Positions 10,590 to 58,603 are shown, counted from the stretch's first letter. The stretch: 64,000 nucleotides of DNA from an uncultured Lachnospiraceae bacterium (GCA_947172645.1 CAMWBY010000015.1:22720-86719); one strand, 5' to 3'. A program made the numbers and translations. Notes: generated by a model not told the origin, from the letters alone.

Positions 10590-10626
10590 ACCGGATTACC
10601 TCCTTGATTTTTCTTCTTACGCCCTG

Positions 10627-11221: not shown

Positions 11222-11281
11222 TTTTTTCCTCTTTACCCAGCCAATTACAACAACGAGAAAAAAAGGCCACATTACTGCGGC

Positions 11282-14871: not shown

Positions 14872-14884
14872 TTCCTAAGTACTT

Positions 14885-15014: not shown

Positions 15015-15053
15015 TCGATTATAAAAAAGTTAAGGGGAATAAAAGACAAAAAA

Positions 15054-15263
15054 ATGGAAACAATAAAAATCAGGGACGATTTTATCAAGCTCGGCCAGGC
15101 AATGAAATTAGCGGGCCTGGTAGATTCCGGTGTAGACGCCAAGATTGAGATACAGGAAGGCTTCGTCAAGGTGAACGGCGAGGTGGAGTTTCAGCGCGGG
15201 AAGAAAATACATCCGGGCGATGTGATAGAATTTGACGGACAACAGGTTAGGGTAGAGAACTGA
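15054..15263 (+). CDS. yaaA: S4-domain RNA-binding protein (YaaA-like)
   Basis: 69-aa 'METIKIRDDFIKLGQAMKLAGL...VKVNGEVE..RGKKIHPGDVIEF'. Conserved dnaN-yaaA-recF position. The ORF-track start at 14958 reads through the GC-rich spacer. Confidence 0.85.
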   Translation: METIKIRDDFIKLGQAMKLAGLVDSGVDAKIEIQEGFVKVNGEVEFQRGKKIHPGDVIEFDGQQVRVEN

Positions 15264-16357: not shown

Positions 16358-16406
16358 CGTGCAGTTTCGTGGACGGAATATGTTGCATGAAAGAAGGGCA
16401 TGGTGA

Positions 16407-18323
<1,917 letters not shown>

Positions 18324-18391
18324 GAGTATCCATAGTCATTAAACTGATTTTATTGGAAAAATATGTCAGTTAGGATATATAGGAGCGGATA

Positions 18392-35629: not shown

Positions 35630-36378
35630 TTGATTAGTAACCCCACCGGGCAATGGTCGGAACCCATTACGTCTTTATAAATGATAGCATCCTGTAGCCT
35701 GTCTTTCAGGCATTCCGATACAAGAAAATAATCGATACGCCACCCGGCATTCTTAGTCCTGGCGCTGAAACGGTAAGACCACCAGGAATAAGCGCCTTCC
35801 AAGTCAGGATAAAAGTGCCGGAATGTATCGATAAAACCTGCCTCAGTCAATGCCGTAAACTTCGCCCTCTCCTCGTCGGTGAAACCGGCGTTCATGCGGT
35901 TTGTCTTCGGGTTTTTTAAGTCAATCTCTTTGTGAGCCACATTTAAATCCCCGCAGAAAATGACGGGTTTTGTTTCTTCTAACTTTTTCAGATAGCATAA
36001 GAAATCTTCTTCCCATTTCATACGATAATCTAACCGGGCAAGTTCGTTCTGGGAATTGGGTGTATACACGGTGATAAGATAATAATCAGGATATTCCAGC
36101 GTGATAACGCGTCCTTCATGGTCGTGTTCTTCGACTCCTATACCATAGTTTACTGAAACAGGCTCTTCCTTCGTGAAAACAGCAGTCCCTGAATATCCTT
36201 TCTTCTCGGCATAATTCCAATACTGATGATAACCTGGCAGGTCTAAGTCAATCTGTCCTTCCTGCAATTTCGTCTCCTGGACACAGTAAATATCTGCGTC
36301 CTCAGCCTTCACAAAGTCCAGGAATCCTTTGCCCACGCAGGCCCTTAACCCATTGACATTCCATGATATGAATTTCAT
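35626..36378 (-). CDS. xth: Exodeoxyribonuclease III
   Basis: '[13 protein letters not shown]', 'YCVQETK', 'GDLNVAH', C-terminal 'GSDHCPV'. The ORF-track start at 36414 is a short extension. Confidence 0.93.
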
Positions 36379-36422
36379 AGTTTTTATTATTCCTTTCTGC
36401 ACTGCATTCAGCACTCAATTTT

Positions 36423-37481
36423 TTACTGGGGGTAATATTCTTTTATAAACTTCTCCACAATCTCCTGCGACAAATCATACATCCCGTCCAGCCGCTCTTC
36501 ATAGTTCTCCATAGTGAGCCGTTCTTCCCCTTTCGCCAGTTTATCATAGACAACATAGTTAATATCCTTGGAAAAGTGAATCATATCCATATAATGGTCC
36601 AAGTTTGTGATAATCTCTTTGTCATCCTGATAGAAGTAGATTTCTACATTGGGGTATTCCAGAAGAGCCTTTACCGCCTGTTTCTCATTGTAAATGACGG
36701 CGTCCCTCTCTCCGGTTCTGTATGCATTGTCCCACCATAGCATAGAATAGGGAGAAAAGAAAAATTTAAATGTAGTATCCGGGTGCGCCTCGACCTGCGC
36801 GGTGAGAAGCGCAATATTCCCTGAAAGCTGTTCGGCATTCACGGTTTCCGGCTGCATGTCTTTGATGACAGGCGGGCGGGTATACATTCCCATTGCCATA
36901 TCCTGTCCGAAATACTTCCATTGCGCCCAGTTATAAGAATTTCCTTCGTCATAGTCTCCGATAAAGGAATAGGCTAACATATAAGGAAGTTTCTCCATCA
37001 GCACGTCTTTGTTGAGAAGGTAAGGATAATCGTTCAAAAGATTCTTGTCATACAAGTACATAGGGCATCCGGTGGATACATAAGTGGGTTCTGTGCTTGC
37101 CGACAGGGAGGAAGGGTCTATGTTGTAGAATACGTATTTCAGCTCATGCCCTTCATAGGCATTGTCAAGCAGATAGCACAGGTCGGCGGTGGCGCCGTAG
37201 GAGCGGATTGCCTTGACGGTTGTACATCCGAAACCTTCGTCAAACCAGTGGTTATTATAATTTTCGCAGACAGAGGAGCCCACAATAAGCGCGTCATAAT
37301 CAAAAGTGCGTAATGTACCGATACATTGGTACTCTTTGTCGGTGAGCACAGCTTTTAAACCAGGTAAGGGTTTATGATATTGGTAAAAGGGGTCAAAAAC
37401 AACCACCAGGGCAATCACTGCTGCCAGGAGAACCAGTGTACGTATGAAAAATGATTTGATAAATTTCCGGTCAGTATTCAT
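36423..37481 (-). CDS. Membrane-anchored DltD-like / SGNH-like accessory protein of the MBOAT acyltransferase
   Basis: N-terminal TM helix, 'LIVGSSVCE' (GSS serine motif as in DltD), C-terminal 'DMIHF' (DxxH). Lies 17 nt downstream of the MBOAT gene. The assignment rests on motifs and context only. Confidence 0.45.
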   Translation of the reverse strand: MNTDRKFIKSFFIRTLVLLAAVIALVVVFDPFYQYHKPLPGLKAVLTDKEYQCIGTLRTFDYDALIVGSSVCENYNNHWFDEGFGCTTVKAIRSYGATADLCYLLDNAYEGHELKYVFYNIDPSSLSASTEPTYVSTGCPMYLYDKNLLNDYPYLLNKDVLMEKLPYMLAYSFIGDYDEGNSYNWAQWKYFGQDMAMGMYTRPPVIKDMQPETVNAEQLSGNIALLTAQVEAHPDTTFKFFFSPYSMLWWDNAYRTGERDAVIYNEKQAVKALLEYPNVEIYFYQDDKEIITNLDHYMDMIHFSKDINYVVYDKLAKGEERLTMENYEERLDGMYDLSQEIVEKFIKEYYPQ

Positions 37482-37498
37482 CTGCTATTCCTTTATTT

Positions 37499-39010
37499 TT
37501 AGAAATTAAAATATAAGAATGTGCTTACCTGAGACAGTGATACAATGCACCAGATAAGCAGGATACAAATGCACCAGCATCGTTTTGAGGTCAGTTCGCC
37601 TTTCATCGTCCGCTCATAAGCATTGGGCCTGGAAATCAAATAGAACGCCAGGATAAAGAGCAGGAACATCAAAATAAGGTACATATATTTCACGAAGTCC
37701 GGCGCTGCCAGTTCAAGGGCCTGCCTGATGACATAGATTTCGGAAATATCAAGCTGTGCGGCGACTTCATAGATTTTGCCTGTGAAGTGCCCGGAAAACA
37801 GGTTTTCAAATAATTGGAGAGCGGCCCTCATGCTTCCGCTTCTGAAGAAGAAGAGGGACATGTTAAACAGTGTGAAAGTAAAAATCCATCCAAGCCATGC
37901 GGGAATCTGAAAACGGGCGGGCCTTTTCCCGTCGTGTCCTTTTACGCCTATGATGCCCAGATTGTCCCATACTACCAATAATCCGTGCATGGCGCCCCAT
38001 GCCACATAAGTCCATGCCGCACCGTGCCATAAGCCGCTTAATAAGAAAATGACAAAAGTGTTGATTAACATCCGCACCCTGCCCTTTTTACTGCCTCCCA
38101 GGGGGATGTATACATAAGTAATGAAAAAACGGGAAAGCGTAATATGCCATCTTTGCCAAAATTCTTTTATACTGCATGCCCGGTAAGGCGCGTTGAAATT
38201 GACGGGCAGCTCAATGTTGAACATCTTGCCGAGTCCCATGGCCATGTCGGAGTAACCGCTGAAATCAAAATAAAGTTCAAATGTATAGGATAAAATAACG
38301 GCAATTGTGGAAATACTGTCCAGGGAGAAAGTCTGGGCGAATCCATAGTTTGCCATCAGTGCAAAAGTGTCCGCCAAGAGTACCTTTTTTGCAAGCCCTA
38401 GTATGAAAAGATAGATGCCTCTGGAAAAGGAGGACGGGTTAAAACTGCGTTTGGAGACGTCCTCAAACTGAGGAATCATTTCTTTATATAGTACGATAGG
38501 CCCGGCAATCAACTGCGGGAAAAAAGTGACGAAGGTAACATAGTTTAGCAGAGAATAATGCTCCGATTTTCCAAGGCATCTGTCAATAATGAAAGATAAC
38601 TGCTGGAAAGTGAAAAAGCTGATACCAAGAGGCAGCAGTATATGTTTCAATGTGAAATCCGTGTGGAAAGCAAGGTTTATATTTTCAATAAAGAAATCAT
38701 AATATTTAAAATAAAACAGTATACCCAGGTTTAAGGTGACGCCGGTAAACAGCCCTACGCGGTTGAAGAGACGTGCATGGGGCGAGTCGGCAGGCACACG
38801 CGCCAGAAGATAACTTAAGAGATAATTGGCCCCGATACTGCACAGGATGATTGCCAGGTAATAGGCGTTGAAGTATCCATAAAACCACAAAGACATGCCT
38901 GCCAGGAACAAGTTGGCGAGGGAATATCTCTTATAGCGGTTGAATGTGTACCATCCGGCCAGCACCAGTGGCAGAAAAATAAAAATAAAAATATATGAAT
39001 TGAATAACAT
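37499..39010 (-). CDS. MBOAT-family membrane O-acyltransferase (AlgI/DltB/PatA-like)
   Basis: About 11 TM helices, 'FWQRWHITLSRFF' and 'LLSGLWHGAAWTY' (the invariant His region of MBOAT). Confidence 0.9.
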   Translation of the reverse strand: MLFNSYIFIFIFLPLVLAGWYTFNRYKRYSLANLFLAGMSLWFYGYFNAYYLAIILCSIGANYLLSYLLARVPADSPHARLFNRVGLFTGVTLNLGILFYFKYYDFFIENINLAFHTDFTLKHILLPLGISFFTFQQLSFIIDRCLGKSEHYSLLNYVTFVTFFPQLIAGPIVLYKEMIPQFEDVSKRSFNPSSFSRGIYLFILGLAKKVLLADTFALMANYGFAQTFSLDSISTIAVILSYTFELYFDFSGYSDMAMGLGKMFNIELPVNFNAPYRACSIKEFWQRWHITLSRFFITYVYIPLGGSKKGRVRMLINTFVIFLLSGLWHGAAWTYVAWGAMHGLLVVWDNLGIIGVKGHDGKRPARFQIPAWLGWIFTFTLFNMSLFFFRSGSMRAALQLFENLFSGHFTGKIYEVAAQLDISEIYVIRQALELAAPDFVKYMYLILMFLLFILAFYLISRPNAYERTMKGELTSKRCWCICILLIWCIVSLSQVSTFLYFNF

Positions 39011-46394: not shown

Positions 46395-46543
46395 TCGTTT
46401 CCGGTCATTTTTCTAAATTATCTGTTTTCGGATAGAATGAAATTGTTTTGTACTTTCCTTTTTTGTGTTACAATAGGCATTACGATAATGAAAATAACAT
46501 AACGGCTGAAAATATTTATGAGCTTTGGTTTATGGAGGCAAAA

Positions 46544-47968
46544 ATGAGAGGTCAGAAAAATCCGGAGAAGTTTGATTGGAATTATTTTTTAAAGCATATT
46601 GCGATTATTGCTGTGCCCGTGGCATTGCAGAATCTTCTGACGACTACGGGAAGTATGGTAGATACGATGATGCTGGCTTCTCTGGGAGAACAGACGGTGG
46701 GGGCTGTGGGGCTTTGCGCCCAGTTTTCCAGTCTGATGTTTGCAGGCTATTGGGGATTTGTGGGCGGCGGTATGTTGTTTTTTGCCCAATACTGGGGAGC
46801 AAAAAACGATGATGGAATCAACCGTTCTTTCGGCCTGACTCTTTCTTTTATGATGGCGGTGGGACTTATTTTTAGCTTTCTTGCTCTGGGGGCTCCAGGT
46901 TTTATTATGAATATCTATACCGATAAGCCGGAAATCCAGCAGATAGGAATTTCTTATTTGAAAATTGCAGGTTTTGCTTATATCCTTCAAATTCTGGCTA
47001 TGGCGGTGAGCGCCCTGCTTCGTTCTATTGAACAGGTAAAGATTCCTCTTTACGGTGGAATCGCCTCGGTTGTTTCCAATTGTTTTTTTAATTATCTGCT
47101 TATCTTCGGAAAATTTGGGCTCCCGAGGATGGGAGTGCGCGGGGCGGCTCTTGGAACGGTGCTTGCGGGCATGGTGAATCTGCTTATTTTGTTGTTTTTT
47201 ATAATCAAAAATAAGATACCCTATGCGTTGGAATTTTCCAGGCATTTCCGTTGGAATAGGGCATTTGTCGGGCAGTATCTACAGAAGTGTTTTCCGATTC
47301 TGTGCAACGAAGTGTTAATCGGAGTGGGAAATATGATGATTAATATTGTCCTGGGCCATCAGAGTGAAAAGGCTATCGCCGCCGTGGCGGTATTCCGTAC
47401 TTTGGAGGGGCTTGTCATTGCTTTTTTCAGCGGTTTCTCCAATGCGGCTACGGTTCTTGTAGGAAAAGAAGTGGGGGCGGGAAACCACGAGGTAGCTTTT
47501 CAGCGCGCCAAACGGTTGGTATATCTGTGCAGCGCACTGATTGGCATGGCCTGCCTTGGGGTGATTGCCGTACATAATCCGTTACTTCATGCAATGGGGC
47601 TTAGCGGGGAATCTTACCGGATTGGAACGGGTATGCTGTTGATTTACAGTTTAGCAGCCTTGTTTCGGATGGGAAACTGGACGCAGAACGATACATACCG
47701 CTCCGCGGGAGATGCAGCCTTTGGCTCTGTCATGGAAATTACCTTTATGTATTTGATGGTGCTTCCATGTGTGTATGCGGCTAACTATGCGTTCCATCTG
47801 CCTTTTCTCTTGGTATTTGCTTTGTGTTATGTGGATGAGCCAGTCCGGTACATTATTATGCAGTGCCATATGTATTCCGGTAAATGGATAAAACCGGTGT
47901 CGGATGAAGGGGCGAAGACGATTGAAGAGTTCCGCAAACGGCACGGGATTGAGAAGGTGCAAAAATAA
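46544..47968 (+). CDS. MATE-family efflux transporter
   Basis: The ATG at 46544 follows GGAGG. 'VPVALQNLLTTTGSMVDTMMLASLG' and a 12-TM profile. Confidence 0.9.
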   Translation: MRGQKNPEKFDWNYFLKHIAIIAVPVALQNLLTTTGSMVDTMMLASLGEQTVGAVGLCAQFSSLMFAGYWGFVGGGMLFFAQYWGAKNDDGINRSFGLTLSFMMAVGLIFSFLALGAPGFIMNIYTDKPEIQQIGISYLKIAGFAYILQILAMAVSALLRSIEQVKIPLYGGIASVVSNCFFNYLLIFGKFGLPRMGVRGAALGTVLAGMVNLLILLFFIIKNKIPYALEFSRHFRWNRAFVGQYLQKCFPILCNEVLIGVGNMMINIVLGHQSEKAIAAVAVFRTLEGLVIAFFSGFSNAATVLVGKEVGAGNHEVAFQRAKRLVYLCSALIGMACLGVIAVHNPLLHAMGLSGESYRIGTGMLLIYSLAALFRMGNWTQNDTYRSAGDAAFGSVMEITFMYLMVLPCVYAANYAFHLPFLLVFALCYVDEPVRYIIMQCHMYSGKWIKPVSDEGAKTIEEFRKRHGIEKVQK

Positions 47969-47992: not shown

Positions 47993-48775
47993 ATGAAAAA
48001 TTATTCAGAAGATGCAAGCAGGCAGTACCACATACAGGTGGCGCAAGGGGAAGTAGGCCGGTATGTCATCATGCCCGGGGACCCTAAAAGATGCGTGAAG
48101 ATAGCGCAATATTTTGACAATCCGGTTTTGGTTGCAGATAACAGGGAGTATATAACGTATACCGGGACTTTGGATGGAGTGAAGGTCAGCGTTACATCCA
48201 CCGGAATCGGGGGACCGTCTGCATCCATCGCCATGGAAGAGCTATGCCGGTGCGGCGCAGATACGTTTATCCGTATCGGAACTTGCGGCGGTATGCAGCC
48301 GGAGGTCAAAAGCGGGGATGTTGTGATTGCCACTGGGGCAATCCGCATGGAAGGGACGAGCAAGGAGTATGCCCCTATCGAATTTCCTGCGGTAGCAGAT
48401 ATCAATGTGACGAATGCGCTGGTAACGGCGGCGAAGGAGAAGGGATATCCTTTCCATACAGGCGTCGTGCAGTGTAAGGATGCGTTTTACGGACAGCATG
48501 AGCCGGAGACGAAGCCGGTAAGCTATGAGCTGATGAATAAGTGGGAGGCCTGGAAGAGACTTGGGTGCCTGGCGTCGGAGATGGAGTCTGCGGCTTTATT
48601 TGTAGTGGCAAGTTATTTGCATGTCAGGACCGGCTCCTGCTTCCTGGTAGTTGCCAATCAGGAGAGGGAGAAGCTTGGGTTGGAGAATCCGGTGGTGCAT
48701 GATACAGATATGGCGATTCAGGTGGCAGTGGAGGCAATCCGGGAGTTAATCAGGCAGGACAAGAAACAGGCGTAG
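47993..48775 (+). CDS. udp: Uridine phosphorylase (PNP_UDP_1 family)
   Basis: '[10 protein letters not shown]', '[16 protein letters not shown]', 'EMESAALF'. The Udp-type 'STGIGGPS' motif argues against DeoD. Confidence 0.85.
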
Positions 48776-48928: not shown

Positions 48929-49342
48929 TTACTGGATTGGATTTAAATATTTTTCTATCATGTCTACTACATAGTTAGCTGTTTCTAATTGTTCTTTGGC
49001 ATCTTCTACGGAAACAATATAAAAATCGTCATAATCGCTAGCATGGCGTATTTCTTGTGCCCGATTAATTTTTTTACTCATTTCTTTTGGAAAGATACCG
49101 GTATGGATAAAATCTTTATTAAAATTCCCAAGTACTTGAGCATGTTGTTTGTATGCTTTAAATTCTAATGCAAGGCAGGCTGAGACAGCCCTAAAAATTG
49201 CATAATATGCTCTGTTATTAGAAGCACGGTAATGTCCGATTTGGAAATTTATTTTAGCGGCTTCTAAATCTTCTTTTGCAATGGTAATTCGGTATTGAGC
49301 CAGTTCCTTTGCGCCGCCAATATCGTCTAAGTTAAGTTGCAT
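48929..49342 (-). CDS. HEPN-domain protein (toxin component of a HEPN/nucleotidyltransferase pair)
   Basis: 137-aa all-helical protein with 'RASNNRAYYAIF' and 'EIRHASDYDDF'. Overlaps the upstream nucleotidyltransferase gene by 11 nt. Confidence 0.75.
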   Translation of the reverse strand: MQLNLDDIGGAKELAQYRITIAKEDLEAAKINFQIGHYRASNNRAYYAIFRAVSACLALEFKAYKQHAQVLGNFNKDFIHTGIFPKEMSKKINRAQEIRHASDYDDFYIVSVEDAKEQLETANYVVDMIEKYLNPIQ

Positions 49343-49670
49343 ATAATTCTATCCCTTCTTTTTTTACATTGTAGTAAAATGGATATGCACGCAGCCACTT
49401 ATTAAAATGTTCTAAGTTTTTAACAATTGGCATTATTTTTAAGTTGTCGTCGAAATTATATTCAAAAGTCATATCAGAAAGAAGATGTCCTTTATTTATA
49501 ATTTCCCGGTCTGATAAATCAACTAAAATCATAATATCAATATCTGAATCAGGTTTACAATCTCCTCGTGCATAGGAACCATATAAGATTACGGTTTTTA
49601 ATTGCTTACCATATATATGTTGTATGTCTTTGACATAGTTTTTTAAAATGTTGTCTATTTTTACAGGCAT
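49332..49670 (-). CDS. Minimal nucleotidyltransferase (MNT) domain protein (antitoxin-type partner of HEPN)
   Basis: 'LYGSYARGDCKPDSDIDIMILV' (GSxxRG...DxD Pol-beta NTase motif). The ORF reaches 49709; the ATG at 49670 follows AAAGGA. Confidence 0.8.
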   Translation of the reverse strand: MPVKIDNILKNYVKDIQHIYGKQLKTVILYGSYARGDCKPDSDIDIMILVDLSDREIINKGHLLSDMTFEYNFDDNLKIMPIVKNLEHFNKWLRAYPFYYNVKKEGIELYAT

Positions 49671-49707
49671 ATTTTTTCCTTTCATTGAGGAATATCTTTT
49701 ATTTGCC

Positions 49708-49728
49708 ATTTGTCTATTTTGGACAAAT
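49708..49728. promoter_or_regulatory. Small palindrome upstream of the MNT/HEPN pair, candidate autoregulatory operator
   Basis: ATTTGTC-tattttg-GACAAAT, directly upstream of the pair. Confidence 0.3.
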
Positions 49729-49862
49729 AGTTTTTATACGTATTATTTTTAATAGTAATATTTCTCTTTTTGATTATTTTATCATGGCCTTTCATATGGT
49801 ACAATAGTAGCATTATATAATTAGCGTGGTAAGGTCAATAAAAATATGGTAAACTATATAAA

Positions 49863-50972
49863 ATGAATATAAAAGATTATTTACAGGAGGAACCCACCAT
49901 CATGCAGGATTTTATTAAAATATCAAAATATGCGGGAATGCGTAACGACCTGGCGCAGGCAGGGGGAGGTAATACTTCTGTCAAGCTTGACGGCAATGTG
50001 ATGCTTGTGAAAAGTTCAGGGTTCCAATTGGCGGATGTAGACGAACAGACAGGTTATTCCAAGGTTGATTATAGAAAAATTATTGACTATTTCAAAGAAT
50101 GTGTGGAAGGACAGAAAGAAGACGTATTTACGGAAGAGTGCGGGAAAGAATTGTTGCAGCAGGCACAGATAGAAGGTGGGCGCGCTTCCATAGAGACCTT
50201 TCTTCATGCCGTCACCGGAAAATATACACTTCATTCCCATCCTACGCTTGTCAATATTTTAACGGCAAGGGCAGGGGGCATGGAAGTTCTGCGCAACCTT
50301 TTTCCGAAAGCGGTGTTTGTGCCATACAGGAAGCCAGGAGCGGCACTGGCGGAAACATATTATAAGATATACCGTAAACAGCAGAAACAGGGGGCGGACG
50401 GCTCGGTTATTTTCCTGGCAAACCATGGCCTGGTGGTGAGCGGAGACGATGGCGATACGGTAATCGGTATGACGGAGCAGGTTTTAGGGAAGATTGCCGG
50501 ATACTTGGGCATAGATGACAGAGCTTATACGGCGGCGACAGCACTCTATCAGACAATACAGCAGATAGAGGGGCTTTGCGGGAATATTGTTTATCTTTCT
50601 GAAAATAGGTATTTATCTCATGAATATGCGGGCGGCAAGTTGGCGGAAGAAGGTTTGTGGGAACATGCCTTCTGTCCTGACTGTGTGGTCTATGCGAATA
50701 AGAAATTGCTGTGGCTTAAGAAGGATTATGGCAAGCAGGACATTATACAATTTATGGAGCAGTCGGGCGCTCCGGCATTGGTATATTATGAAGGGCATTT
50801 TTATATTTTGGCGGAGAGTGTGAAAAAAGCGCAGGAGATTGAGAATGTGATGAGTTTCGCGGCGAGAGTGCAATACGCCAACATAGGGCAGAAGATGAAT
50901 ATACTCAGTGACGCCCAGGAAAACGAGCTTCTCAACTGGGATGCGGAGAAATACCGGAGACGGATGGCGTGA
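49863..50972 (+). CDS. Stand-alone class II aldolase/adducin-fold protein (like the N-terminal domain of YuxG/RhaD-type aldolase-dehydrogenases)
   Basis: 'AQAGGGNTSVKLDGNVMLVKSSG', 'ASIETFLHA', 'LHSHPT'. The probable start is Met14 at 49902, 11 nt after AGGAGG. Confidence 0.75.
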   Translation: MNIKDYLQEEPTIMQDFIKISKYAGMRNDLAQAGGGNTSVKLDGNVMLVKSSGFQLADVDEQTGYSKVDYRKIIDYFKECVEGQKEDVFTEECGKELLQQAQIEGGRASIETFLHAVTGKYTLHSHPTLVNILTARAGGMEVLRNLFPKAVFVPYRKPGAALAETYYKIYRKQQKQGADGSVIFLANHGLVVSGDDGDTVIGMTEQVLGKIAGYLGIDDRAYTAATALYQTIQQIEGLCGNIVYLSENRYLSHEYAGGKLAEEGLWEHAFCPDCVVYANKKLLWLKKDYGKQDIIQFMEQSGAPALVYYEGHFYILAESVKKAQEIENVMSFAARVQYANIGQKMNILSDAQENELLNWDAEKYRRRMA

Positions 50973-51021
50973 CAATCATGTATTGCCGGAAGTAAGGATT
51001 GGCGCAAGAAAGGATATACAT

Positions 51022-52770
51022 ATGAATGTGATGATTCCTATGACGGGCTACGGTTCCCGTTTTGTGGCAGCAGGCTACCAGGATTTGAAGCCTTTTATCA
51101 AGGTGATGGGCAAGCCGGTTATAGAGTGGATTGTGAAAGGAATGTATCCCCAGGATGTGAATTTTATTTTTGTGTGCCGGGGAGAACATCTTAAGGAAAA
51201 TCCGGCAATGCGAGAGAGGCTTTTGGGTATAGCGCCTGGCGCAGTCATTGTGACGATTGAAGATTGGGTGAAGAAGGGGCCCGTTTTCGATGTGCTGCGC
51301 GCGTATAAGGCTGTCCGCCAGGTGAAGAACATAAAGGGCAGCAGTGCGGACGGCAGACATCACAATAACAGGTGTCCGGAGCGTGAGTGCGGCGGTGATA
51401 TCAATATAGACGGCGTTCTGTTGTGTTGCGAGGATGTAGAAAAAATAGCCGGAATTGATTTAGAGGACGGATTTATTATCAATTACTGCGATTTCTATAT
51501 GAAATGGGACTATGCCTCTTTTGCCCAAAAAGCCAGGGAACGCGGCTGCGACGGCGCGGTGCCTTGTTACACTGGATTTCATCCGAACTTGCTTCCGGAA
51601 AAGAATTATTATGCCTCCTGCCTGACGGATGAAGAAGACAATCTCATAGAGATTCGGGAGAAATACTCCTTTGAAAAAGATAAGACAAAGGCGAAGCATT
51701 CACCGGGCGTTTACTATTTTAAGAATGGCGGAACGATGGAGAAATACTGTCAGATATTGACGGAGCATGAAGAATGTGCAATCAATGGGGAGTATTATGC
51801 GTCTTTGCCCTATCAATTCATGGTGCGGGACGGGCTGAAAGTATGGGTTCCGGCTGATGTGGAATATTTCTGCCAGTGGGGTACGCCGGAGGATATGGAG
51901 GAGTTTGTCTACTGGACGGATTTGATAAGGAAAGCCGGGAGTGAGCAGGATATTGTGCAGAAGGATGCGTGCCTTGGACGTATTTTAATCCCTATGGCGG
52001 GTGCAGGGCAGCGGTTTGCGGATGCGGGGTATCAGGTACATAAACCTGCAATTATGACGGTAGACCGCAAGACAGGGCAGGAGAAACCTATGGTGGTATG
52101 CGCTACGGCGGATTTACCGGGGGTTGCGCCGGACGGAAGCAATGTGATATACGTGGACAGGTCCTTCCACAAATCTGACGGGGTGGAAGATGTCATCCGT
52201 GCATATTATCCGAAAGTATCTTTTATTACGGTGGACCATTTGACCGAAGGACAGGCATGTACATGTATGTTGGCGGAGAATGACTTGAATCCGGAAGAAC
52301 CGTTGTTGATTGCGGGCTGTGATAATGGCATGGATATTGACAGAGAAGCTTTTTCCAGGTTGACAGAGGAATGCGACTGTATCGTGTTTACTTATCGCCA
52401 TAATGAGGCGGTGCTGGCGAATCCCAATGCCTATGGATGGATGATTGCCGATGAGGACGGGAATATTACAGGCACATCCATTAAAAAAGCAATTTCAGAA
52501 ACACCGATGGAGGACCCTGCGGTGGTGGCAACCTTCTGGTTTAAGAAAGCGAAAATATTCCTGGAGGCTACGAAGAAGATGATTGCGGAGAATGACCGTA
52601 TCAACGGGGAATACTATGTGGATCAGGTGGCAAAACACGTCCTGGATTTAGGTTACCGTGCGAAGATATTTGACATAGAACGGTACGTGGGGTGGGGTAC
52701 GCCTGCGGACTATGAAGGATACCAGAAGACATGGAAGTATTTTGAGGGGTTTCTTGCATCTGAAAAATAA
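51022..52770 (+). CDS. Tandem (duplicated) sugar-phosphate nucleotidyltransferase-like protein
   Basis: Two GT-A/NTP-transferase-like halves. Half 1: 'MIPMTGYGSRFVAAGYQDLKPFIKVMGKPVIEW ... CQWGTPEDMEEF'. Half 2: 'LIPMAGAGQRFADAGYQVHKPAIM ... VGWGTPADYEGY'. The ORF-track start at 50908 overlaps the upstream gene. Confidence 0.75.
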   Translation: MNVMIPMTGYGSRFVAAGYQDLKPFIKVMGKPVIEWIVKGMYPQDVNFIFVCRGEHLKENPAMRERLLGIAPGAVIVTIEDWVKKGPVFDVLRAYKAVRQVKNIKGSSADGRHHNNRCPERECGGDINIDGVLLCCEDVEKIAGIDLEDGFIINYCDFYMKWDYASFAQKARERGCDGAVPCYTGFHPNLLPEKNYYASCLTDEEDNLIEIREKYSFEKDKTKAKHSPGVYYFKNGGTMEKYCQILTEHEECAINGEYYASLPYQFMVRDGLKVWVPADVEYFCQWGTPEDMEEFVYWTDLIRKAGSEQDIVQKDACLGRILIPMAGAGQRFADAGYQVHKPAIMTVDRKTGQEKPMVVCATADLPGVAPDGSNVIYVDRSFHKSDGVEDVIRAYYPKVSFITVDHLTEGQACTCMLAENDLNPEEPLLIAGCDNGMDIDREAFSRLTEECDCIVFTYRHNEAVLANPNAYGWMIADEDGNITGTSIKKAISETPMEDPAVVATFWFKKAKIFLEATKKMIAENDRINGEYYVDQVAKHVLDLGYRAKIFDIERYVGWGTPADYEGYQKTWKYFEGFLASEK

Positions 52771-52833
52771 AACAGAAACTAATCAAAATAGTTTCATAGC
52801 TGATAAAATCCGAGCAGAGAGGTACAGGCATTT

Positions 52834-54948
52834 ATGTTACAGAGACTGGAAACCCTGGACTGGGAGAAGAATTACCATAGAATATTAAAAATATCTGTTA
52901 CCGTGACAGTCTTATTTAAGTTACTCTTGATGGGGCTATTTTCATCGGATTACCAGGACATGATGTTTATCCCGTTTGTCCAGTGTTTTCTAGGGGGTGA
53001 GAACCCATACCAGTATTATTATGATAATGGGCTTCTCCCTTCTTTTCCCTATCCGCCCGTTATGCTTTTCATAGAGAGTATTGGAGGGATTCTCCTTAAA
53101 TTTGGCGGTGAGCTTCCGGTTTTTCTGCATAATTTTCTCTTTAAGCTGCCTCTTCTTTTCGCAGATTTGTTGGGGCTGTACTATCTGATGCGTATTTCAA
53201 AGTCCAGGCGTAAGTATATTATGGTGTTATATTTCCTGTCTCCGGTTATTCTGTATGCTTCTTATATGCATGGACAGCTTGACATCATACCGACAGTATT
53301 TTTAGTGGCGGCCATTTACTATTTGACGAAAGCGGGTATATCGAAAGAAGAGTGTGCCCGCAATGACTGGAAATTTGTGCTGTTTTTGACGCTGTCCCTG
53401 GCGTCCAAGTTCCATATTGCGGTGGTTTTCCCATTATTTTTCCTTTATCTATATAAAAAAAGAGGAGGCAGGAAAGCGATAATTATGACGGGGCTCCCGG
53501 TCTTGTTTACGGTTGTTGCCGTGATTCCTTTTTGGGGAAGCGGTTTTCTTAGCATGGTGCTGTTTAATAAGGAGCAGAATGTCATTGATAATGTATATCT
53601 TGATTATGGCAGCGCGCATCTTCTTTTATGTGTGCTTGTACTCCTTATGATTTATTTCCAGGCTTTCCATGTAAACCAGATGAACAGGGATTTGCTTATC
53701 AGTATGGCGGGGTTGGTTTTTTCTGTATTTCTTGCGTTTGTGCCTGCCATGCCTGCATGGTATATATGGGTGGCGCCTTTTTTTATGCTGTACTTGTCAG
53801 GCTTATCAGTCAGCCGCAGTAAGATGGTTATGGTTTATGGCATGTTTCATCTGTTATACTTAATCTATTATATATGTTTCCATACCGCAGGATTTACGGA
53901 CTTATCTTTTCTGGGAAAAGATTTGGGATGGCTGAAATATCATGATGCAGGTCTGAAAGATATCGTGTTTACATTGATGGTCGGGGTATTCCTGATTCTC
54001 GTTGTCTCCATGTATCTGTACGGGGTAGGGAGTAATTCCTATTACCGGAGAAGAAACAGACCTTTTACGGTGGGTATAGCAGGGGACAGCGGCGCAGGCA
54101 AGAACAGGCTGCTTACTATGTTGGAAGAACTGTTTGGCGGGGAGAATATTCTGGATATTGAAGGAGACGGTGACCACAGGTGGGAGCGGGGCGATGCCAA
54201 TTGGGATGGCATGACCCATTTAAATCCATTGGCCAATTATCTGTACAGGCAGGCGGAGGATTTGCGCGTGCTGCGCGGGAACAATGCGGTTAAACGGGCG
54301 GATTATGACCATAATACCGGAACGTTTACAGGCAGGAAAAAGGTATCTCCGAAACCGTATATTGTTATGTGCGGCCTGCATTCGCTTTATTTGCCTCAGA
54401 TGAGAGAGGTGCTTGACTTAAAAATTTACCTGGATACCGATGAAGCGCTCAGACGGTACTGGAAAATGAGCAGGGATTTGGGTGACAGAGGGCATACGGT
54501 AAAAGAAGTTGCGGCGCAGATGGAGAAAAGACGCCCGGACGCCGAGAAGTATATCCATCCGCAGAAAAAGTATGCCGACCTTGTCATCCGTTATTATGAC
54601 GCAGCTTTGGCGGAAGACTTCAAGGACATAAAGGGTACGCATAAACCACAACTGGGAGTAGAATTTTTGATGGATGTGAGTATCAATGCAGAGCCTGTGC
54701 TTGTTCTTTTACAGGAGCAGGGTGTACACGGAAGCTTATCTTATGACAATGACCTGCTTCACCAGAGGATTGTTTTTGCGGGTGAGGATTTGGCAGTGGG
54801 AAAAGAAGTCTGGGAAAAAACTGCACGCGCGGCGGTTCTGCAGATGGAGGACTTGACAGGCGGGCACGTTACGTGGGAAGATGGCGTCAACGGATTGATA
54901 CAGGTAGTGCTTTTGGTGGTAATTGGAGAGATTATGAAGAGGGATTAG
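52834..54948 (+). CDS. Fusion of a polytopic GT-C-like membrane domain and a phosphoribulokinase/uridine-kinase-family domain
   Basis: Residues 1 to about 400 hold 10 or more TM helices with 'SSDYQD' and 'FPYPP' in early loops. Residues from about 405 to 600 read 'VGIAGDSGAGKN', 'HLNPLANYLY', 'YDHNTG', 'LDLKIYLDTDEALRRYWKMSRDLGDRGHT' and 'RRPDAEKYIHPQKKYADLVI', closely paralleling plant/cyanobacterial PRK motifs. Confidence 0.75.
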   Translation: MLQRLETLDWEKNYHRILKISVTVTVLFKLLLMGLFSSDYQDMMFIPFVQCFLGGENPYQYYYDNGLLPSFPYPPVMLFIESIGGILLKFGGELPVFLHNFLFKLPLLFADLLGLYYLMRISKSRRKYIMVLYFLSPVILYASYMHGQLDIIPTVFLVAAIYYLTKAGISKEECARNDWKFVLFLTLSLASKFHIAVVFPLFFLYLYKKRGGRKAIIMTGLPVLFTVVAVIPFWGSGFLSMVLFNKEQNVIDNVYLDYGSAHLLLCVLVLLMIYFQAFHVNQMNRDLLISMAGLVFSVFLAFVPAMPAWYIWVAPFFMLYLSGLSVSRSKMVMVYGMFHLLYLIYYICFHTAGFTDLSFLGKDLGWLKYHDAGLKDIVFTLMVGVFLILVVSMYLYGVGSNSYYRRRNRPFTVGIAGDSGAGKNRLLTMLEELFGGENILDIEGDGDHRWERGDANWDGMTHLNPLANYLYRQAEDLRVLRGNNAVKRADYDHNTGTFTGRKKVSPKPYIVMCGLHSLYLPQMREVLDLKIYLDTDEALRRYWKMSRDLGDRGHTVKEVAAQMEKRRPDAEKYIHPQKKYADLVIRYYDAALAEDFKDIKGTHKPQLGVEFLMDVSINAEPVLVLLQEQGVHGSLSYDNDLLHQRIVFAGEDLAVGKEVWEKTARAAVLQMEDLTGGHVTWEDGVNGLIQVVLLVVIGEIMKRD

Positions 54949-54957
54949 GTTAGCAGG

Positions 54958-55635
54958 ATGATAAAAGCAATTATATTTGATTTGGACGATACATTGTATG
55001 CCTATGAGCCATTGGACAAAGAAGCATGTCGGAGGGTACAGGAGTATGCCTGTGCGGAATTGGGAATCACTGTGCAGCAGTATGAGGAAGCATTTCTATA
55101 CGGCAGGAGTGAGACGAAGCGCAGTTTGGGCGATGTGGCGGCCTGCCACAACAGAATGTTGTATTTTCAAAAGACATTGGAGCGTCTTGGTGTAAATCCT
55201 GCGCCCATGTCTTTACAATTATATGAGACATATTGGGGTACTTTTTTAGAAAAAATGGTTTTACGCGAGGGCGCAAGAGAATTTTTAGATGCCATGCATG
55301 AACATGGAATCAGAGTCATGGTGTGCACTGACTTGACGGCGCATATCCAGCACCGCAAAATAGAGGCTCTTGGCATAGCGGATGATATATGCTGTTTGGT
55401 AACCAGTGAGGAGGCGGGCAGAGAGAAGCCTTCCAGGGAAATTTTTGAGTTATGTTTGGAGAAGCTGAAACTTCCGCCTGATGAAGTATGCTGCATTGGG
55501 GATAATTTTGAGAAAGATGTGGAAGGCGCAAGAGCCGCGGGAGTACAGGCGATTTGGTTCGATGCGGGCAAACCCAGTGCGGCGCAGTTTGTGGAGGCGA
55601 TGCGGGGTATTTTGGGAGAGGAGAGCCATTTATGA
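54958..55635 (+). CDS. HAD-superfamily hydrolase (subfamily IA)
   Basis: Motif I 'IIFDLDDTLY', motif II 'VCTDL', motif IV 'CIGDNFEKDVEGA'. Confidence 0.88.
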   Translation: MIKAIIFDLDDTLYAYEPLDKEACRRVQEYACAELGITVQQYEEAFLYGRSETKRSLGDVAACHNRMLYFQKTLERLGVNPAPMSLQLYETYWGTFLEKMVLREGAREFLDAMHEHGIRVMVCTDLTAHIQHRKIEALGIADDICCLVTSEEAGREKPSREIFELCLEKLKLPPDEVCCIGDNFEKDVEGARAAGVQAIWFDAGKPSAAQFVEAMRGILGEESHL

Positions 55636-56330
55636 AACTATCTATTGTTGTTCCATGTTATAATGAAGAACAGAATATTCCGTTAATCCTGGAACGGTTT
55701 GGGGAGATGATTGATAGGGATGATATTGAGGTTATTCTTGTGGACAACGGTTCCACGGATGGCAGCGCGCAGGCGCTTACACGTCTTCTTCCCGAGTATC
55801 CTTTCGCCCGGACGGTGAAGGTGGAGGTCAACCAGGGATATGGGTACGGGATTCTGCAGGGACTGAAAGAGTGTCAAGGGGAATATATCGGTTGGACACA
55901 TGCGGATATGCAGACTGACCCTGCGGATATTCTCAAGGCTTTGGCCATTATAGAAGGGGAGAGAGGATTGGTTTTTGTAAAAGGAAATCGCAAGAACCGG
56001 CCATTTTTTGATGTTTTCTTCACGGTGGGCATGAGCTTGTTTGAGACGTGTTATCTACATAAGAAATTATATGATATCAATGCCCAGCCCAATATTTTCC
56101 CTAAGGTATTTTTTGATGCATGGGAGAATCCTCCTTATGATTTTTCCCTGGATTTGTACGCCTTGTATATGGCGCGCAAGAAGAATCTGAAGGTAGTCAG
56201 ATTTCCGGTGCTTTTCCCGGAGAGGATTTATGGGGAATCAAAGTGGAATACGGGGTTAAAGGCTAAATGGAAGTTTATTAAGAGGACGATAGAATTTAGT
56301 GTGAACCTGAAGAAAAATGGAAACTTATAA
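55632..56330 (+). CDS. Family 2 glycosyltransferase, Dpm1/GtrB/ArnC-like (polyprenyl-phosphate sugar synthase type), short form without C-terminal TM helices
   Basis: 'LSIVVPCYNEEQNI', 'VDNGSTDGS', 'HADMQTDP'. ATGA overlap with the HAD gene. The ORF-track start at 55554 is an out-of-context extension. Confidence 0.82.
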   Translation: MKLSIVVPCYNEEQNIPLILERFGEMIDRDDIEVILVDNGSTDGSAQALTRLLPEYPFARTVKVEVNQGYGYGILQGLKECQGEYIGWTHADMQTDPADILKALAIIEGERGLVFVKGNRKNRPFFDVFFTVGMSLFETCYLHKKLYDINAQPNIFPKVFFDAWENPPYDFSLDLYALYMARKKNLKVVRFPVLFPERIYGESKWNTGLKAKWKFIKRTIEFSVNLKKNGNL

Positions 56331-56354
56331 TTTGTAAAGGAATGAGGGATTAAT

Positions 56355-56945
56355 ATGGAATACATAGCGCATCGGGTAAATACGGTAGATGAATTACGTA
56401 AATTGCCTCCGGAATATGGGGTGGAGTTAGATTTAAGAGATGATTTGAATGGCAGAATCTATATTTCCCATAACCCTTTTGAGGCGGGTGAGGATTTTGA
56501 GGATTACTGTAAAGAATATCATCATGGAACGATGATTCTGAATATTAAGAGCGAGCGGATTGAACATAAAGTGTTGAAATATATGAAGCAGTACCGTATC
56601 GAAAAGTATTTTTTCTTGGATTCGTCTTTTCCGATGATAAAATTGCTGACGGATATGGGAGTAAAAGATATCGCGCTCCGGTTCAGTGAATTGGAAGGGC
56701 TTGACACAATCCGTAATATGGCAGGCAAGGCGGACTGGGTCTGGGTAGATTGTTTCACGAGAATTCCACTTGACTACAACAGTTACCGGGAGTTGAAAGA
56801 TTTAGGATATAAGCTATGTTTCGTGTCGCCGGAACTAGAAGGACAGGAGGAGAAAATCCCTGCGTACAGAAAATACATAGAAGAACAGAAAATTGTGTTT
56901 GATGCGGTATGCACGAAGAGCTACCATATAGAAGACTGGATGTAA
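56355..56945 (+). CDS. GDPD-like (glycerophosphodiester phosphodiesterase / PLC-like TIM barrel) protein
   Basis: 'IAHRVNT', 'GVELDLRDDLNGRIYISHNP', paralleling the GDPD motifs HR(G) and E-x-D...HD. Confidence 0.6.
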   Translation: MEYIAHRVNTVDELRKLPPEYGVELDLRDDLNGRIYISHNPFEAGEDFEDYCKEYHHGTMILNIKSERIEHKVLKYMKQYRIEKYFFLDSSFPMIKLLTDMGVKDIALRFSELEGLDTIRNMAGKADWVWVDCFTRIPLDYNSYRELKDLGYKLCFVSPELEGQEEKIPAYRKYIEEQKIVFDAVCTKSYHIEDWM

Positions 56946-57010
56946 ATTTGGTGCCAAAGAGCTTTAAGCGCTGCCCAAATGTGCAGGCTGAGCAAGAATG
57001 GTGGATTAAT

Positions 57011-58603
57011 ATGAACAAACCAAACAAAGAAATACATATAAAAATAGTTATGGCGGCGGCAATCGTAGCAACTTTGCTTGCGGGATTGCTTATATTCTAC
57101 AGACATTGGAATTTTGAACTGCCACTGTATCCGAATGTGGATGAACAGTTGTCTTTAGACTGTATATACGACTTGTTAGGACAACATATTTATGCGGGTG
57201 ATATTTATGTATTGGATTTCTTCCGGTATCCGCATCTGACGTTCTACTATGCGGTTCTGGGGGTGCGCATTTTAGGAAAACTAATCCGGGGAGTGGATAC
57301 GGTTATCCTGCTTCGCTATGTGGTGTGCGGGACGGCGGTTTTGTCTAATCTGTGTATTTATTTTGCAGTTAAGAAAATGACAGGGGAGCGGAAATGGGGA
57401 TTCATCGGTCTGGTGCTGTCTGTCTTTTCGCTTTATGGATACGCTTACCTGTATTATACAGGCCCGGATACGATGATGTATGCGGTTGCCAATGTCATTA
57501 TGCTTCTGGGGTGTGTGATTTACAAGGATGTGCAGGAAGACAGGGTGGTTTACTTGTGGTATCCTCTCCTTGCAATCTGTATTGGTCTTGCCACCGCGGC
57601 CAAATACCACGGGATTTTATTTGGTGTATTCTGGCTTGCGCTGCATATTAAAAAGAGATATTGGAAGAACCATCGCAACAATTATTTGTTTTTCCTGAAT
57701 TGTATTGTGCTTGCGTTAGTATTCTGTCTGTGTAATTATTCGATGTTTTTTCATTTTAAAACATTTGTATGGGATAACTTGTACAACTTAAACCACTATG
57801 CCTGGGGACATCCGGGGATAGAACATAACTTTTCTCTTCTGGGGTATCTGGAAGCCTATGCGCTTACAAGTTTTGGTATTGTGGGCGGGCTGTTGCTCGT
57901 ATTAGGAATTGTTTGGCTGGTTCGCAAGAAAGACAGGCAGCAGCTTATTGTGTTTCTGATTATGCCGGTGGGTATCATACTGTTTTTATCAAAGTATAAA
58001 ATTGTGTTAGGAAGAAATCTGTCGTTGGTACTGCCCTTTGCGTTTCTGTTTATGGTATATGGACTGATGGAGATAGAAAGGCTGTTTGAAGGCCGTCGTT
58101 ATTATAAAAAGGGTATGATTCCGGCATTGATTGCTTTGATGGTAGTCTGCAACGTGGGGGTGGCTGTCAACGGTTACCGTTACCACTTGTCATATACGCA
58201 TGCGGAACATTATATCAGGACACAGATTCCGGAGGGTTCTACCGTTTATTGCACTTCCTTTGCTCCTTTGATAGATTCCAAGCGGTATCAGGTGATAGAT
58301 ATAGGGGAGGATATCAGCAGTTTGCCGGATAAGCTGAGCGATAAGGAATATTATGTGGATGTGGAATATGCCACAGGATATTTTGACCAACGTAAGGATT
58401 ATTTGATTTTTCAGGGCAAGGATATGTACCCTGACTTAAAGGATGCATACGAGAAGAAGATTGGAAGTTATACGCTGTTACAGGATTTTGCAGGCATATC
58501 CTACGGGAGAGAGTGGAGATACCGTATCGGGTATCTTGATATGTTTCGGTACAGCCCGGAGAAATATTATATTGGGCCCAGCGTTGCCATTTATGGAAAA
58601 TAG
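57011..58603 (+). CDS. GT-C-fold membrane glycosyltransferase (ArnT/PMT/YfhO-like) with a C-terminal extracytoplasmic domain
   Basis: The ATG at 57011 follows GGTGGA. About 11 TM helices, a 'NVDEQ' acidic motif in the first loop, and a soluble C-terminal tail of about 150 aa. Confidence 0.72.
   Translation: MNKPNKEIHIKIVMAAAIVATLLAGLLIFYRHWNFELPLYPNVDEQLSLDCIYDLLGQHIYAGDIYVLDFFRYPHLTFYYAVLGVRILGKLIRGVDTVILLRYVVCGTAVLSNLCIYFAVKKMTGERKWGFIGLVLSVFSLYGYAYLYYTGPDTMMYAVANVIMLLGCVIYKDVQEDRVVYLWYPLLAICIGLATAAKYHGILFGVFWLALHIKKRYWKNHRNNYLFFLNCIVLALVFCLCNYSMFFHFKTFVWDNLYNLNHYAWGHPGIEHNFSLLGYLEAYALTSFGIVGGLLLVLGIVWLVRKKDRQQLIVFLIMPVGIILFLSKYKIVLGRNLSLVLPFAFLFMVYGLMEIERLFEGRRYYKKGMIPALIALMVVCNVGVAVNGYRYHLSYTHAEHYIRTQIPEGSTVYCTSFAPLIDSKRYQVIDIGEDISSLPDKLSDKEYYVDVEYATGYFDQRKDYLIFQGKDMYPDLKDAYEKKIGSYTLLQDFAGISYGREWRYRIGYLDMFRYSPEKYYIGPSVAIYGK

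Follow-up and report, generated by a model that had tools for sequence, protein, structure and literature searches.

A phosphoribulokinase-type domain in a conserved gene module for putative lipid-carrier glycosylation in an uncultured Lachnospiraceae bacterium

Introduction

Why is a phosphoribulokinase (PRK) encoded among glycosyltransferases, and what would such a set of genes build? PRK counts as a hallmark enzyme of the Calvin cycle and of pathways linked to RuBisCO. The question is raised by seven genes, g1 to g7, on a 64,000-nucleotide (nt) stretch of DNA from an uncultured Lachnospiraceae bacterium (GCA_947172645.1, CAMWBY010000015.1:22720-86719), the whole of which is called the window below. 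The genes encode a class II aldolase-fold protein (g1), a double nucleotidyltransferase (g2), a membrane domain fused to a PRK domain (g3), a HAD phosphatase (g4), a GT2 glycosyltransferase (g5), a protein resembling glycerophosphodiester phosphodiesterases (GDPDs; g6) and a GT-C glycosyltransferase (g7).

The answer put forward here, to which we give a probability of roughly 55%, is that the operon encodes a Gtr-type system for lipid-carrier-dependent extracytoplasmic glycosylation, with a donor branch that would start at ribulose 5-phosphate (Ru5P). This reading is carried by the enzyme types, by the conservation of the PRK catalytic residues and by the obligate co-occurrence, in polysaccharide loci, of six gene families accompanied by GtrA and GT-C partners.

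The Membrane-PRK Protein

The C-terminal domain of g3 matches the Pfam PRK domain at 113 bits. Against the PRK of Synechococcus (6hzk), phmmer gave 137 bits and a gapless alignment of 185 amino acids (aa), while uridine kinases reached about 59 bits. The AlphaFold2 model of g3 has a pLDDT of 90.9, and Foldseek aligned it to whole PRK chains (9qko and 9qkp) over about 306-314 columns, with a TM-score (target) of 0.76-0.79 and an E-value of 2.5e-18, whereas uridine kinases matched over about 183 columns only. The fold match includes the PRK-specific C-terminal region beyond the nucleoside monophosphate (NMP) kinase core, and with the full-length protein as query the top 50 matches were all kinases.

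The catalytic Asp/His dyad of PRK has been defined for the plant enzyme as Asp57 and His105 of CrPRK (PMC9978339). In g3 the positions of the first Asp of LDDYH and of the His of NHETG are taken by D445 and H493, both invariant in 41 diverse homologues (27-48% identity). The P-loop is kept, the PRK motifs D..H...R and NH.TG are invariant in the family, and the regulatory Cys beside the catalytic Asp is absent, its place being taken by Glu or Gly. Judged from alignment and predicted fold, the domain is a true PRK-type enzyme, which would fix the entry to the pathway at Ru5P; the conserved catalytic residues suggest that Ru5P is the substrate.

The N-terminal domain of the window protein found no match in Pfam and PDB sequence searches, even with profiles. 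Among 22 family members compared with Pfam, six matched GT87, three ALG3, three EpsG, one Alg6_Alg8 (2.8e-7) and one PMT_2, and the Azospirillum orthologue of the domain matches GT87 across the full model. The domain appears to belong to the GT-C clan. Its invariant residues include K29, F71-P72-Y73, D111, D150 (HGQLD), K192, W312 and P315. The invariant acidic residues are D111 and D150, and the Asp of FSSDY is unconserved (consensus FSSxY).

An exhaustive search for membrane-PRK relatives returned 4427 cluster representatives at E<=1e-3, and the top 150 were inspected. The membrane domain and the PRK are joined in essentially all of these, and almost all are full-length fusions, down to 30% identity, which amounts to about 150 or more clusters at 50% identity. 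When one genome per species was scanned, relatives were found in 417 GTDB species.

Two loci carry a membrane-PRK paralogue of 71% identity (L029, positions 9971-12109, and L043), in a separate polysaccharide locus with MBOAT, DUF6056, two asparagine synthases and GT4, where the other five core genes are absent. This hints that the fusion is able to work with a donor made elsewhere.

Conservation and Distribution of the Module

The best 80 related loci in GTDB genomes, taken with 10-kb flanks, were used to count the partners of g3. They hold g2 in 78 cases, g5 in 77, g4 in 76, g6 in 75, g1 in 66 and g7 in 60; g1 to g6 are complete in 65 and collinear in 61, and the loci that miss a gene are mostly contigs that end early. 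Across these loci g5 and g6 vary least, and g1 and g4 most.

For a census of families, all open reading frames (ORFs) were clustered from 15 diverse loci, which span Lachnospiraceae, an Escherichia coli IncR plasmid and an O-antigen region of Azospirillum. Exactly six families are universal, namely the aldolase-fold protein, the double nucleotidyltransferase, the membrane-PRK protein, the HAD phosphatase, the GT2 enzyme and the GDPD-like protein, and their order is shuffled. Beyond this core and GtrA, which is present in eight of the 15, no family occurs in more than six loci, and those that come up to this level are short opposite-strand ORFs. Where g3 has fallen to about 30% identity, the same families recur in altered gene order.

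Together with GtrA, the module is found in three proteobacterial replicons, the E. coli IncR plasmid, a plasmid of Azospirillum brasilense and a plasmid of Hirschia baltica. For each of g1 to g6 the E. coli and Azospirillum modules contain an orthologue, 23-58% identical, and for g7 they contain none. The E. coli version (NZ_CP145712.1, 6022-14984) consists of eight genes on a 33-kb IncR plasmid beside IS26, encoding the tandem nucleotidyltransferase, GtrA, the GT2 enzyme, the GDPD-like protein, the membrane-PRK protein, the HAD phosphatase, the aldolase-fold protein and a 586-aa membrane protein. A second E. coli strain, from a bullfrog, has an identical copy, and when 5426 complete E. coli genomes were searched, not at the protein level, two had the module, on one IncR plasmid type in both cases. 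In A. brasilense it lies in an O-antigen-type plasmid region with an ABC transporter, gmd and fcl. The module is found inside O-antigen or wall-polysaccharide loci, with GT4, Wzt_C, ABC transporter and gmd/fcl genes nearby.

Beside the module on plasmid pHbal01 of H. baltica (7691-10224 of that locus) there are genes for a further glycosyltransferase, a further GtrA and a UDP-glucuronate decarboxylase, which suggests that two lipid-linked pentose decoration systems are adjacent there.

The co-conservation of g1 to g6 across phyla, in shuffled order, speaks for a functional unit and not for chance adjacency. An initial annotation of the locus had proposed a unit of seven genes; six of them stand as the conserved unit, and g7, which is lineage-specific, falls outside it.

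Soluble Enzymes of the Module

The g4 protein matches Pfam Hydrolase and HAD_2. Its top curated model is the haloarchaeal ribulose-1,5-bisphosphate (RuBP) 5-phosphatase NF053830 at 190.5 bits, with the next family at 119, and the same model again comes first for five distant orthologues (157-182 bits). By sequence, g4 resembles a RuBP 5-phosphatase.

The g1 protein matches Pfam Aldolase_II at 43 bits; its nearest NCBIfam models are the N-terminal domains of RhaD-type aldolase/SDR fusions, and it weakly resembles the haloarchaeal ribulose 1-phosphate (Ru1P) aldolase model NF053831. Compared with FucA and AraD of E. coli, three zinc-binding histidines (H111, H113 and H175) and the catalytic E98 are kept, as are the phosphate-binding G23-N24-S26 (GN..S) and S39-G40, and Tyr113 of FucA is not conserved. 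The C-terminal domain has conserved motifs of its own, W.H.FCPDC and NWDxEKYR. Because several otherwise complete loci are without g1, it is read as a putative optional step of stereochemical tailoring and not as an aldolase. In one locus (L026, 7151-8230), a NahK-like anomeric sugar kinase with the motif GSGHINHTY occupies the usual place of g1, immediately upstream of the double nucleotidyltransferase. As a replacement for g1 this kinase was discarded, since the arrangement occurs only once and is taken as a coincidence.

The matches of g2 to NTP_transf_3, RmlA and GlmU are weak, and one of its halves gives weak matches to IspD and NTP_transf_3. The two halves are paralogous (hhalign 99.3%, E 4e-20), and both keep IPMxGxGxRF..KP, with the GxGxR...K signature, and WGTPxD(Y/M). 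The C-terminal half was aligned with E. coli RmlA at a probability of 91.9% over 176 columns. In distant loci two separate genes, of about 259 and about 268 aa, stand in place of g2, and in the E. coli and Azospirillum modules the two halves are fused again. That a ketose phosphate can accept a nucleotidyl group is known from CDP-6-D-fructose (PMC10918830). The N-terminal half also holds a Cys/His-rich insert at residues ~97-143 (51310-51450), a stretch whose length is hypervariable among close relatives (28-71 aa) and which is absent from the split-gene versions of distant relatives.

The g6 protein found no sequence match in Pfam, NCBIfam or PDB, even with a profile. It has 3762 homologues, and the best 120 of these carry no Pfam domain, any names being "hypothetical protein"; the proteobacterial orthologues are labelled as PI-PLC/GDPD family in RefSeq. 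No other protein of the set is as well conserved (60-93% identity). From an AlphaFold2 model with a pLDDT of 95.4, the top named Foldseek matches were the GDPDs 1zcc, 7e0v, 4r7o, 3mz2 and 4oec (E 2e-5 to 2e-4; TM-score by query 0.64-0.73). Invariant His-Arg, Glu-x-Asp and His motifs are in register with UgpQ of E. coli, with which hhalign gave a probability of 2.9%. The model points to a GDPD-like TIM barrel. GDPD-fold enzymes act on phosphodiesters by way of a cyclic phosphate that is formed with a vicinal hydroxyl, and the role of g6 is the least certain component of the pathway.

Glycosyltransferases and Flippase

The g5 protein matches Pfam Glycos_transf_2 at 86.6 bits, and its best PDB relatives are the dolichol-phosphate mannose synthase (DPMS) of Pyrococcus furiosus (5mlz), ArnC and GtrB. 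These similarities mark it as a polyprenyl-phosphate GT2 by type. The alignment with E. coli ArnC stops at the start of the transmembrane (TM) helices of ArnC, and no TM segment was predicted in g5. The family has an invariant W-T-H-A-D-M-Q-T-D-P where ArnC, GtrB and DPMS have D-A-D-L-Q, so that His replaces the first metal-binding Asp of DxD. Orthologues are 53-95% identical, the proteobacterial ones 56-58%.

Pfam and PDB sequence searches with g7 itself gave no match, even with profiles. Homologues of 66-82% identity carry PMT_2 (PF13231) and are named GT39 family by NCBI. The protein has at least eight hydrophobic segments, with V-D-E in the first loop. It is confined to the close clade (60 of the 80 loci), and elsewhere its place is taken by unrelated membrane proteins of 540-780 aa, one of them PMT_2/PMT; jackhmmer searches from g7 found no link to the other large membrane proteins of the loci. 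Its sequence relatives and distribution suggest a swappable, acceptor-specific and lineage-specific GT-C enzyme, and a large membrane protein that changes by lineage is as expected for the acceptor-specific GT-C of Gtr-type systems.

When six GtrA sequences were used in tblastn, neither the 64-kb window nor the loci of the close clade gave a match, in agreement with the earlier remark that a GtrA-type flippase gene is missing. GtrA is present in about half of the diverse orthologous modules, as given above, and the clade of the window has lost it from the cluster. Directly to the left of the module's toxin-antitoxin (TA) boundary lie genes for a MATE transporter (46448-47968) and a purine/uridine phosphorylase (PNP_UDP_1, 47993-48775). 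The transporter was considered as a substitute flippase and rejected, as it stands beside the module in none of the 80 related loci; the phosphorylase was rejected as a supplier of pentose, its adjacency being kept only in the closest relative (L003).

Operon Layout and Genomic Setting

The seven ORFs are co-directional on the plus strand and together span 49902-58603 (Table 1). The initial annotation had described seven co-directional genes with short gaps or an ATGA overlap: all seven ORFs were found again, the ATGA overlap of g4 and g5 was confirmed at 55632-55635, and the remaining gaps within g1 to g7 are of 9-65 nt. Each of the seven protein types that it listed is matched by profile, fold or homologue evidence.

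Table 1. Window positions of the seven genes and of the presumed promoter region.
Feature	Position	Strand	Description
Presumed operon promoter region	49710..49901	+	AT-rich intergenic region, GC ~0.30, upstream of g1
g1	49902..50972	+	356-aa class II aldolase/epimerase-fold protein with ~150-aa extra C-terminal domain
g2	51022..52770	+	582-aa tandem sugar-phosphate nucleotidyltransferase with two paralogous halves
g3 N-terminal domain, residues 1-405	52834..54048	+	Polytopic membrane domain, predicted GT-C clan
g3 C-terminal domain, residues ~403-704	54040..54948	+	Predicted complete phosphoribulokinase of plant/cyanobacterial type
g4	54958..55635	+	225-aa HAD-IA phosphatase
g5	55632..56330	+	232-aa GT2 catalytic domain of polyprenyl-phosphate glycosyltransferase type (DPMS/ArnC/GtrB)
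g6	56355..56945	+	196-aa predicted cytoplasmic GDPD/PI-PLC-like TIM-barrel protein
g7	57011..58603	+	530-aa putative GT-C glycosyltransferase of PMT_2 (GT39/GT83-like) type

The start of g1 was refined on the basis of AGGAGG 9 nt upstream, and public gene calls likewise give 356 aa; the start of g2 was refined as well. The start of g7 is probably the one listed, which has a GGTGGA ribosome-binding site and fits homologues of 517-533 aa; an alternative start at 56909 gives 564 aa. The AT-rich region before g1 is presumed to hold the promoter of the operon. Promoter-like hexamers occur at 49703-49749, and in the whole pattern scan such sites are no more numerous than in shuffled sequence. The same kind of scan found no convincing terminator-like site inside the operon.

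Both boundaries described earlier were recovered. On the left stands an AT-rich TA islet on the minus strand (48929-49709, GC 0.30-0.33), a HEPN protein of 137 aa with an MNT-type nucleotidyltransferase of 125 aa, between sugar-utilisation genes and the cluster; on the right is a DegV gene, identified by Pfam. The cluster lies about 38 kb from dnaA and the chromosome origin, and on the leading strand, as the GC skew is positive over 44-64 kb. The origin neighbourhood (4937-20962) holds mnmG, mnmE and yidC on the minus strand, dnaA (12069-13427) and gyrB (16410-18323), followed by an 856-aa ORF (18392-20962) that is called gyrA by position only. Another envelope-modification set may be encoded on the minus strand at 33821-39010, where genes for a protein resembling CotH kinase, an O-acyltransferase of the MBOAT type and a protein of 352 aa with no Pfam match lie together. 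The nearest public relatives of the window are Lachnospiraceae metagenome-assembled genomes from the mouse gut.

Proposed Pathway and Alternatives

The proposed pathway would run as follows. The PRK domain of g3, which the GT-C-like domain would keep at the membrane, would phosphorylate C1 of Ru5P to give RuBP. The HAD phosphatase g4 would take off the 5-phosphate, either of RuBP or of a later 1-substituted intermediate, which would free O5 for closure of a furanose ring; in PRPP (phosphoribosyl pyrophosphate)-dependent ribofuranosyl systems, a HAD domain removes the 5-phosphate of a conjugated pentofuranose (PMC11127046). The g1 protein may then act on the ketose 1-phosphate by zinc-enediolate chemistry, most likely as an epimerase and as an optional step, and g2 would form a nucleotide-activated pentose or pentulose. 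The least certain step is that of g6, which would process a phosphodiester or a 1,2-cyclic phosphate. It may transfer the phosphate of a ketofuranose from O1 to O2, the anomeric position; alternatively, since nucleotide-furanoses decay readily to 1,2-cyclic phosphates, it may reopen or salvage such products. The GT2 enzyme g5 would move the sugar onto undecaprenyl phosphate, the lipid-linked sugar would be flipped, by GtrA where this is present (eight of the 15 diverse modules), and g7, possibly together with the GT-C domain of g3, would attach it to a cell-wall glycopolymer. Both the nature of the sugar and the sequence of the middle steps are inferred. The general scheme of the initial annotation, in which dedicated donor enzymes feed a GT2 that loads a lipid carrier and a GT-C that transfers the sugar outside, gains support from the co-conservation of the genes and from GtrA in the orthologous modules.

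As to the sugar, a ketopentofuranose of the ribulose or xylulose type is preferred and stands slightly ahead, and D-arabino- or ribofuranose is nearly as likely. For the ketopentofuranose it counts that the soluble enzymes, as far as they are recognisable, are all of ketose-phosphate types and that no aldose-ketose isomerase is conserved; a shift of phosphate from C1 to C2 would also explain the doubled nucleotidyltransferase and the GDPD-like enzyme. For the aldoses it counts that RmlA-like nucleotidyltransferases and DPMS-like GT2 enzymes usually handle aldose 1-phosphates and nucleoside diphosphate (NDP)-aldoses. To our knowledge, no donor pathway is known for xylulofuranose or ribulofuranose. 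Xylulofuranose has been reported from Eubacterium saburreum T15, which is a member of the Lachnospiraceae, from E. coli O95 and O97, and from Yersinia, Campylobacter and Devosia.

A more specific and doubtful proposal is that the module is the missing route by which ketopentofuranoses (D-xylulofuranose or ribulofuranose) are activated at the anomeric C2. The PRK and HAD enzymes would together move the phosphate of Ru5P from C5 to C1, freeing O5 for ring closure, g1 would set the configuration at C3 or C4, and one half of g2 would make an NDP-1-pentulose. Using the vicinal anomeric hydroxyl, g6 would turn this into a 1,2-cyclic phosphate, which would be opened to pentulofuranose 2-phosphate; the second half of g2 would give the anomeric NDP-pentulofuranose, from which the GT2 would load undecaprenyl phosphate. 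If true, the proposal would account for every conserved gene and for the xylulose in the glycans of the organisms just named. The E. coli genome count neither supports nor excludes a link of the module to the xylulose-containing O95 and O97 antigens.

Several points weigh against the Gtr-type reading with a Ru5P branch. The scores of the two enzymes that would define its entry lie under the cut-offs of their models (g3 at 196.3 bits against 236 for NCBIfam PRK07429, and g4 at 190.5 against the equivalog cut-off of 330 for NF053830), and the substrates may differ. Five complete loci with full 10-kb flanks have no g1, and the g3 paralogue of two loci (L029 and L043) lacks the remaining module genes. 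The acidic residue that is usual in the first loop of GT-C enzymes seems not to be conserved in the membrane domain of g3, which may be a scaffold and not a transferase, and GtrA is absent from the window and its close clade. No aldose-ketose isomerase that would lead to an anomeric phosphate is recognisable. Finally, the whole pathway is read from sequence and predicted fold.

The alternative that survives best is a polyol- or ketose-phosphate decoration similar to teichoic acid, in which g2 would make CDP-pentulose or CDP-pentitol from Ru1P or Ru5P, a pentulose- or pentitol-phosphate unit would be transferred instead of a glycosyl residue, and the GDPD-like protein would take part in phosphodiester transfer or trimming. 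GDPD-fold enzymes do act on alditol-phosphodiesters, cytidylyl transfer to ketose phosphates is documented (PMC10918830), and one half of g2 has the weak IspD and NTP_transf_3 matches. Nevertheless, the universal families of the 15 loci include no reductase and no phosphotransferase of the TagF, LicD or LtaS type, and a DPMS/ArnC-type GT2 with GtrA and a GT-C enzyme is the signature of polyprenyl-monophosphate sugar donors. This alternative is therefore considered unlikely, and with it the polyol-phosphate donor that had been offered as an option at the outset.

It is very improbable that two unrelated units simply adjoin here, one being a catabolic PRK-HAD-aldolase trio that resembles the non-carboxylating pentose bisphosphate route (Ru5P to RuBP to Ru1P to dihydroxyacetone phosphate (DHAP) and glycolaldehyde) and the other an ordinary Gtr system that uses a common nucleotide sugar. 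The likeness of g4 and, weakly, of g1 to the haloarchaeal RuBP 5-phosphatase and Ru1P aldolase models would fit such a trio, as would the aldolase-type metal ligands of g1. On the other hand, the six families stand together in 15 of 15 diverse loci across phyla despite their shuffled order, among the top 150 representatives essentially all have the PRK covalently joined to a membrane domain of the GT-C clan, the module lies in polysaccharide loci rather than sugar-catabolic ones, and the putative aldolase g1 is the least tightly linked member. Least credible of all is that g3 is a uridine kinase, coupling pyrimidine nucleotide salvage (UTP or CTP) to an ordinary glycosylation system: several homologues are so named by NCBI and the Pfam PRK family includes both kinases, but the far higher score against PRK, the match into the PRK-specific C-terminal region and the invariant PRK motifs stand against it.

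Comparison With Known Systems

The Gtr-type systems comprise GtrA/GtrB/GtrC of Shigella and Salmonella phages, CsbB/GtcA/YfhO of Bacillus and Listeria, and ArnC/ArnT. The module shares with them a polyprenyl-phosphate GT2, a variable and acceptor-specific GT-C, GtrA in orthologous modules, and a location in or beside polysaccharide loci, also on plasmids. The sugar of the known systems comes from housekeeping UDP-Glc or UDP-GlcNAc, or from the Arn pathway, whereas four or five extra conserved enzymes, predicted to build a donor, accompany the GT2 here. The module differs further in a g5 that is without membrane helices and has H-A-D for D-x-D, in a second conserved GT-C-clan domain that is fused to a kinase, and in the absence of GtrA from this window.

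With the PRPP-dependent pentofuranose systems (Kelly et al., 2024, PMC11127046) and with mycobacterial decaprenyl-phospho-arabinose, the proposed pathway would share a pentose donor that is bound to a lipid and stems from a 1,5-bis-activated pentose phosphate, removal of the 5-phosphate by a HAD-type enzyme, an optional diversifying epimerase and a final GT-C. Those systems lead from ribose 5-phosphate to PRPP and rely on a polyprenyl phosphoribosyltransferase of the UbiA type and on a MATE flippase or DprE1/E2. Here, in contrast, a PRK would activate a ketose and transfer would pass through nucleotidyltransferases and a GT2; neither a UbiA-type phosphoribosyltransferase nor a DprE homologue is among the families conserved across the 15 loci.

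The kinase domain shares its fold, the P-loop, the Asp/His dyad and the PRK-specific C-terminal region with the plant and cyanobacterial PRK of the Calvin-Benson cycle (and with the archaeal PRK of methanogens). It differs in the fused membrane domain of about 400 aa, in the absent regulatory Cys and in its host, a fermentative gut anaerobe; no RuBisCO was found among the 37 window proteins scanned against Pfam.

In the non-carboxylating pentose bisphosphate pathway of haloarchaea, as here, a HAD phosphatase (NF053830, the best model for g4) is followed by an enzyme of class II aldolase fold, and g1 would be expected to bind a ketose 1-phosphate. The haloarchaeal route is catabolic, yielding DHAP and glycolaldehyde, whereas the enzymes here are tied to nucleotidyltransferases, a GT2 and a GT-C. 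The likeness covers two enzymes only, at scores well under the equivalog cut-offs, and g1 carries an additional domain at its C-terminus and is without the Tyr of FucA. With GDPD and PI-PLC-like phosphodiesterases, g6 shares the predicted TIM barrel, the N-terminal His-Arg, the Glu-x-Asp and the downstream His, yet it has 196 aa against about 240-250 aa, is 10-14% identical, appears cytoplasmic and is strictly co-conserved with a GT2 and a PRK.

A full-text literature search found no paper that describes this gene set and no characterised homologous cluster, which agrees with the earlier statement that the combination maps onto no characterised pathway. The module would represent a variant of lipid-mediated extracytoplasmic glycosylation that is widespread and uncharacterised, with a RuBP-dependent precursor branch that appears to be unprecedented.

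Biological Meaning

In fermentative gut Lachnospiraceae and in Alpha- and Gammaproteobacteria, a PRK-type domain, fused to a domain predicted to be of the GT-C clan, is tied to genes for glycan decoration. A PRK in such a module implies that RuBP may serve as a precursor of envelope glycosylation. The family is entirely uncharacterised, and the database labels "uridine kinase" and "hypothetical protein" would be mis-annotations. The module provides an experimental handle on how bacteria may activate acid-labile pentofuranoses or ketopentoses for their surface glycans, and it suggests that abundant gut commensals carry a surface modification that has so far gone unrecognised.

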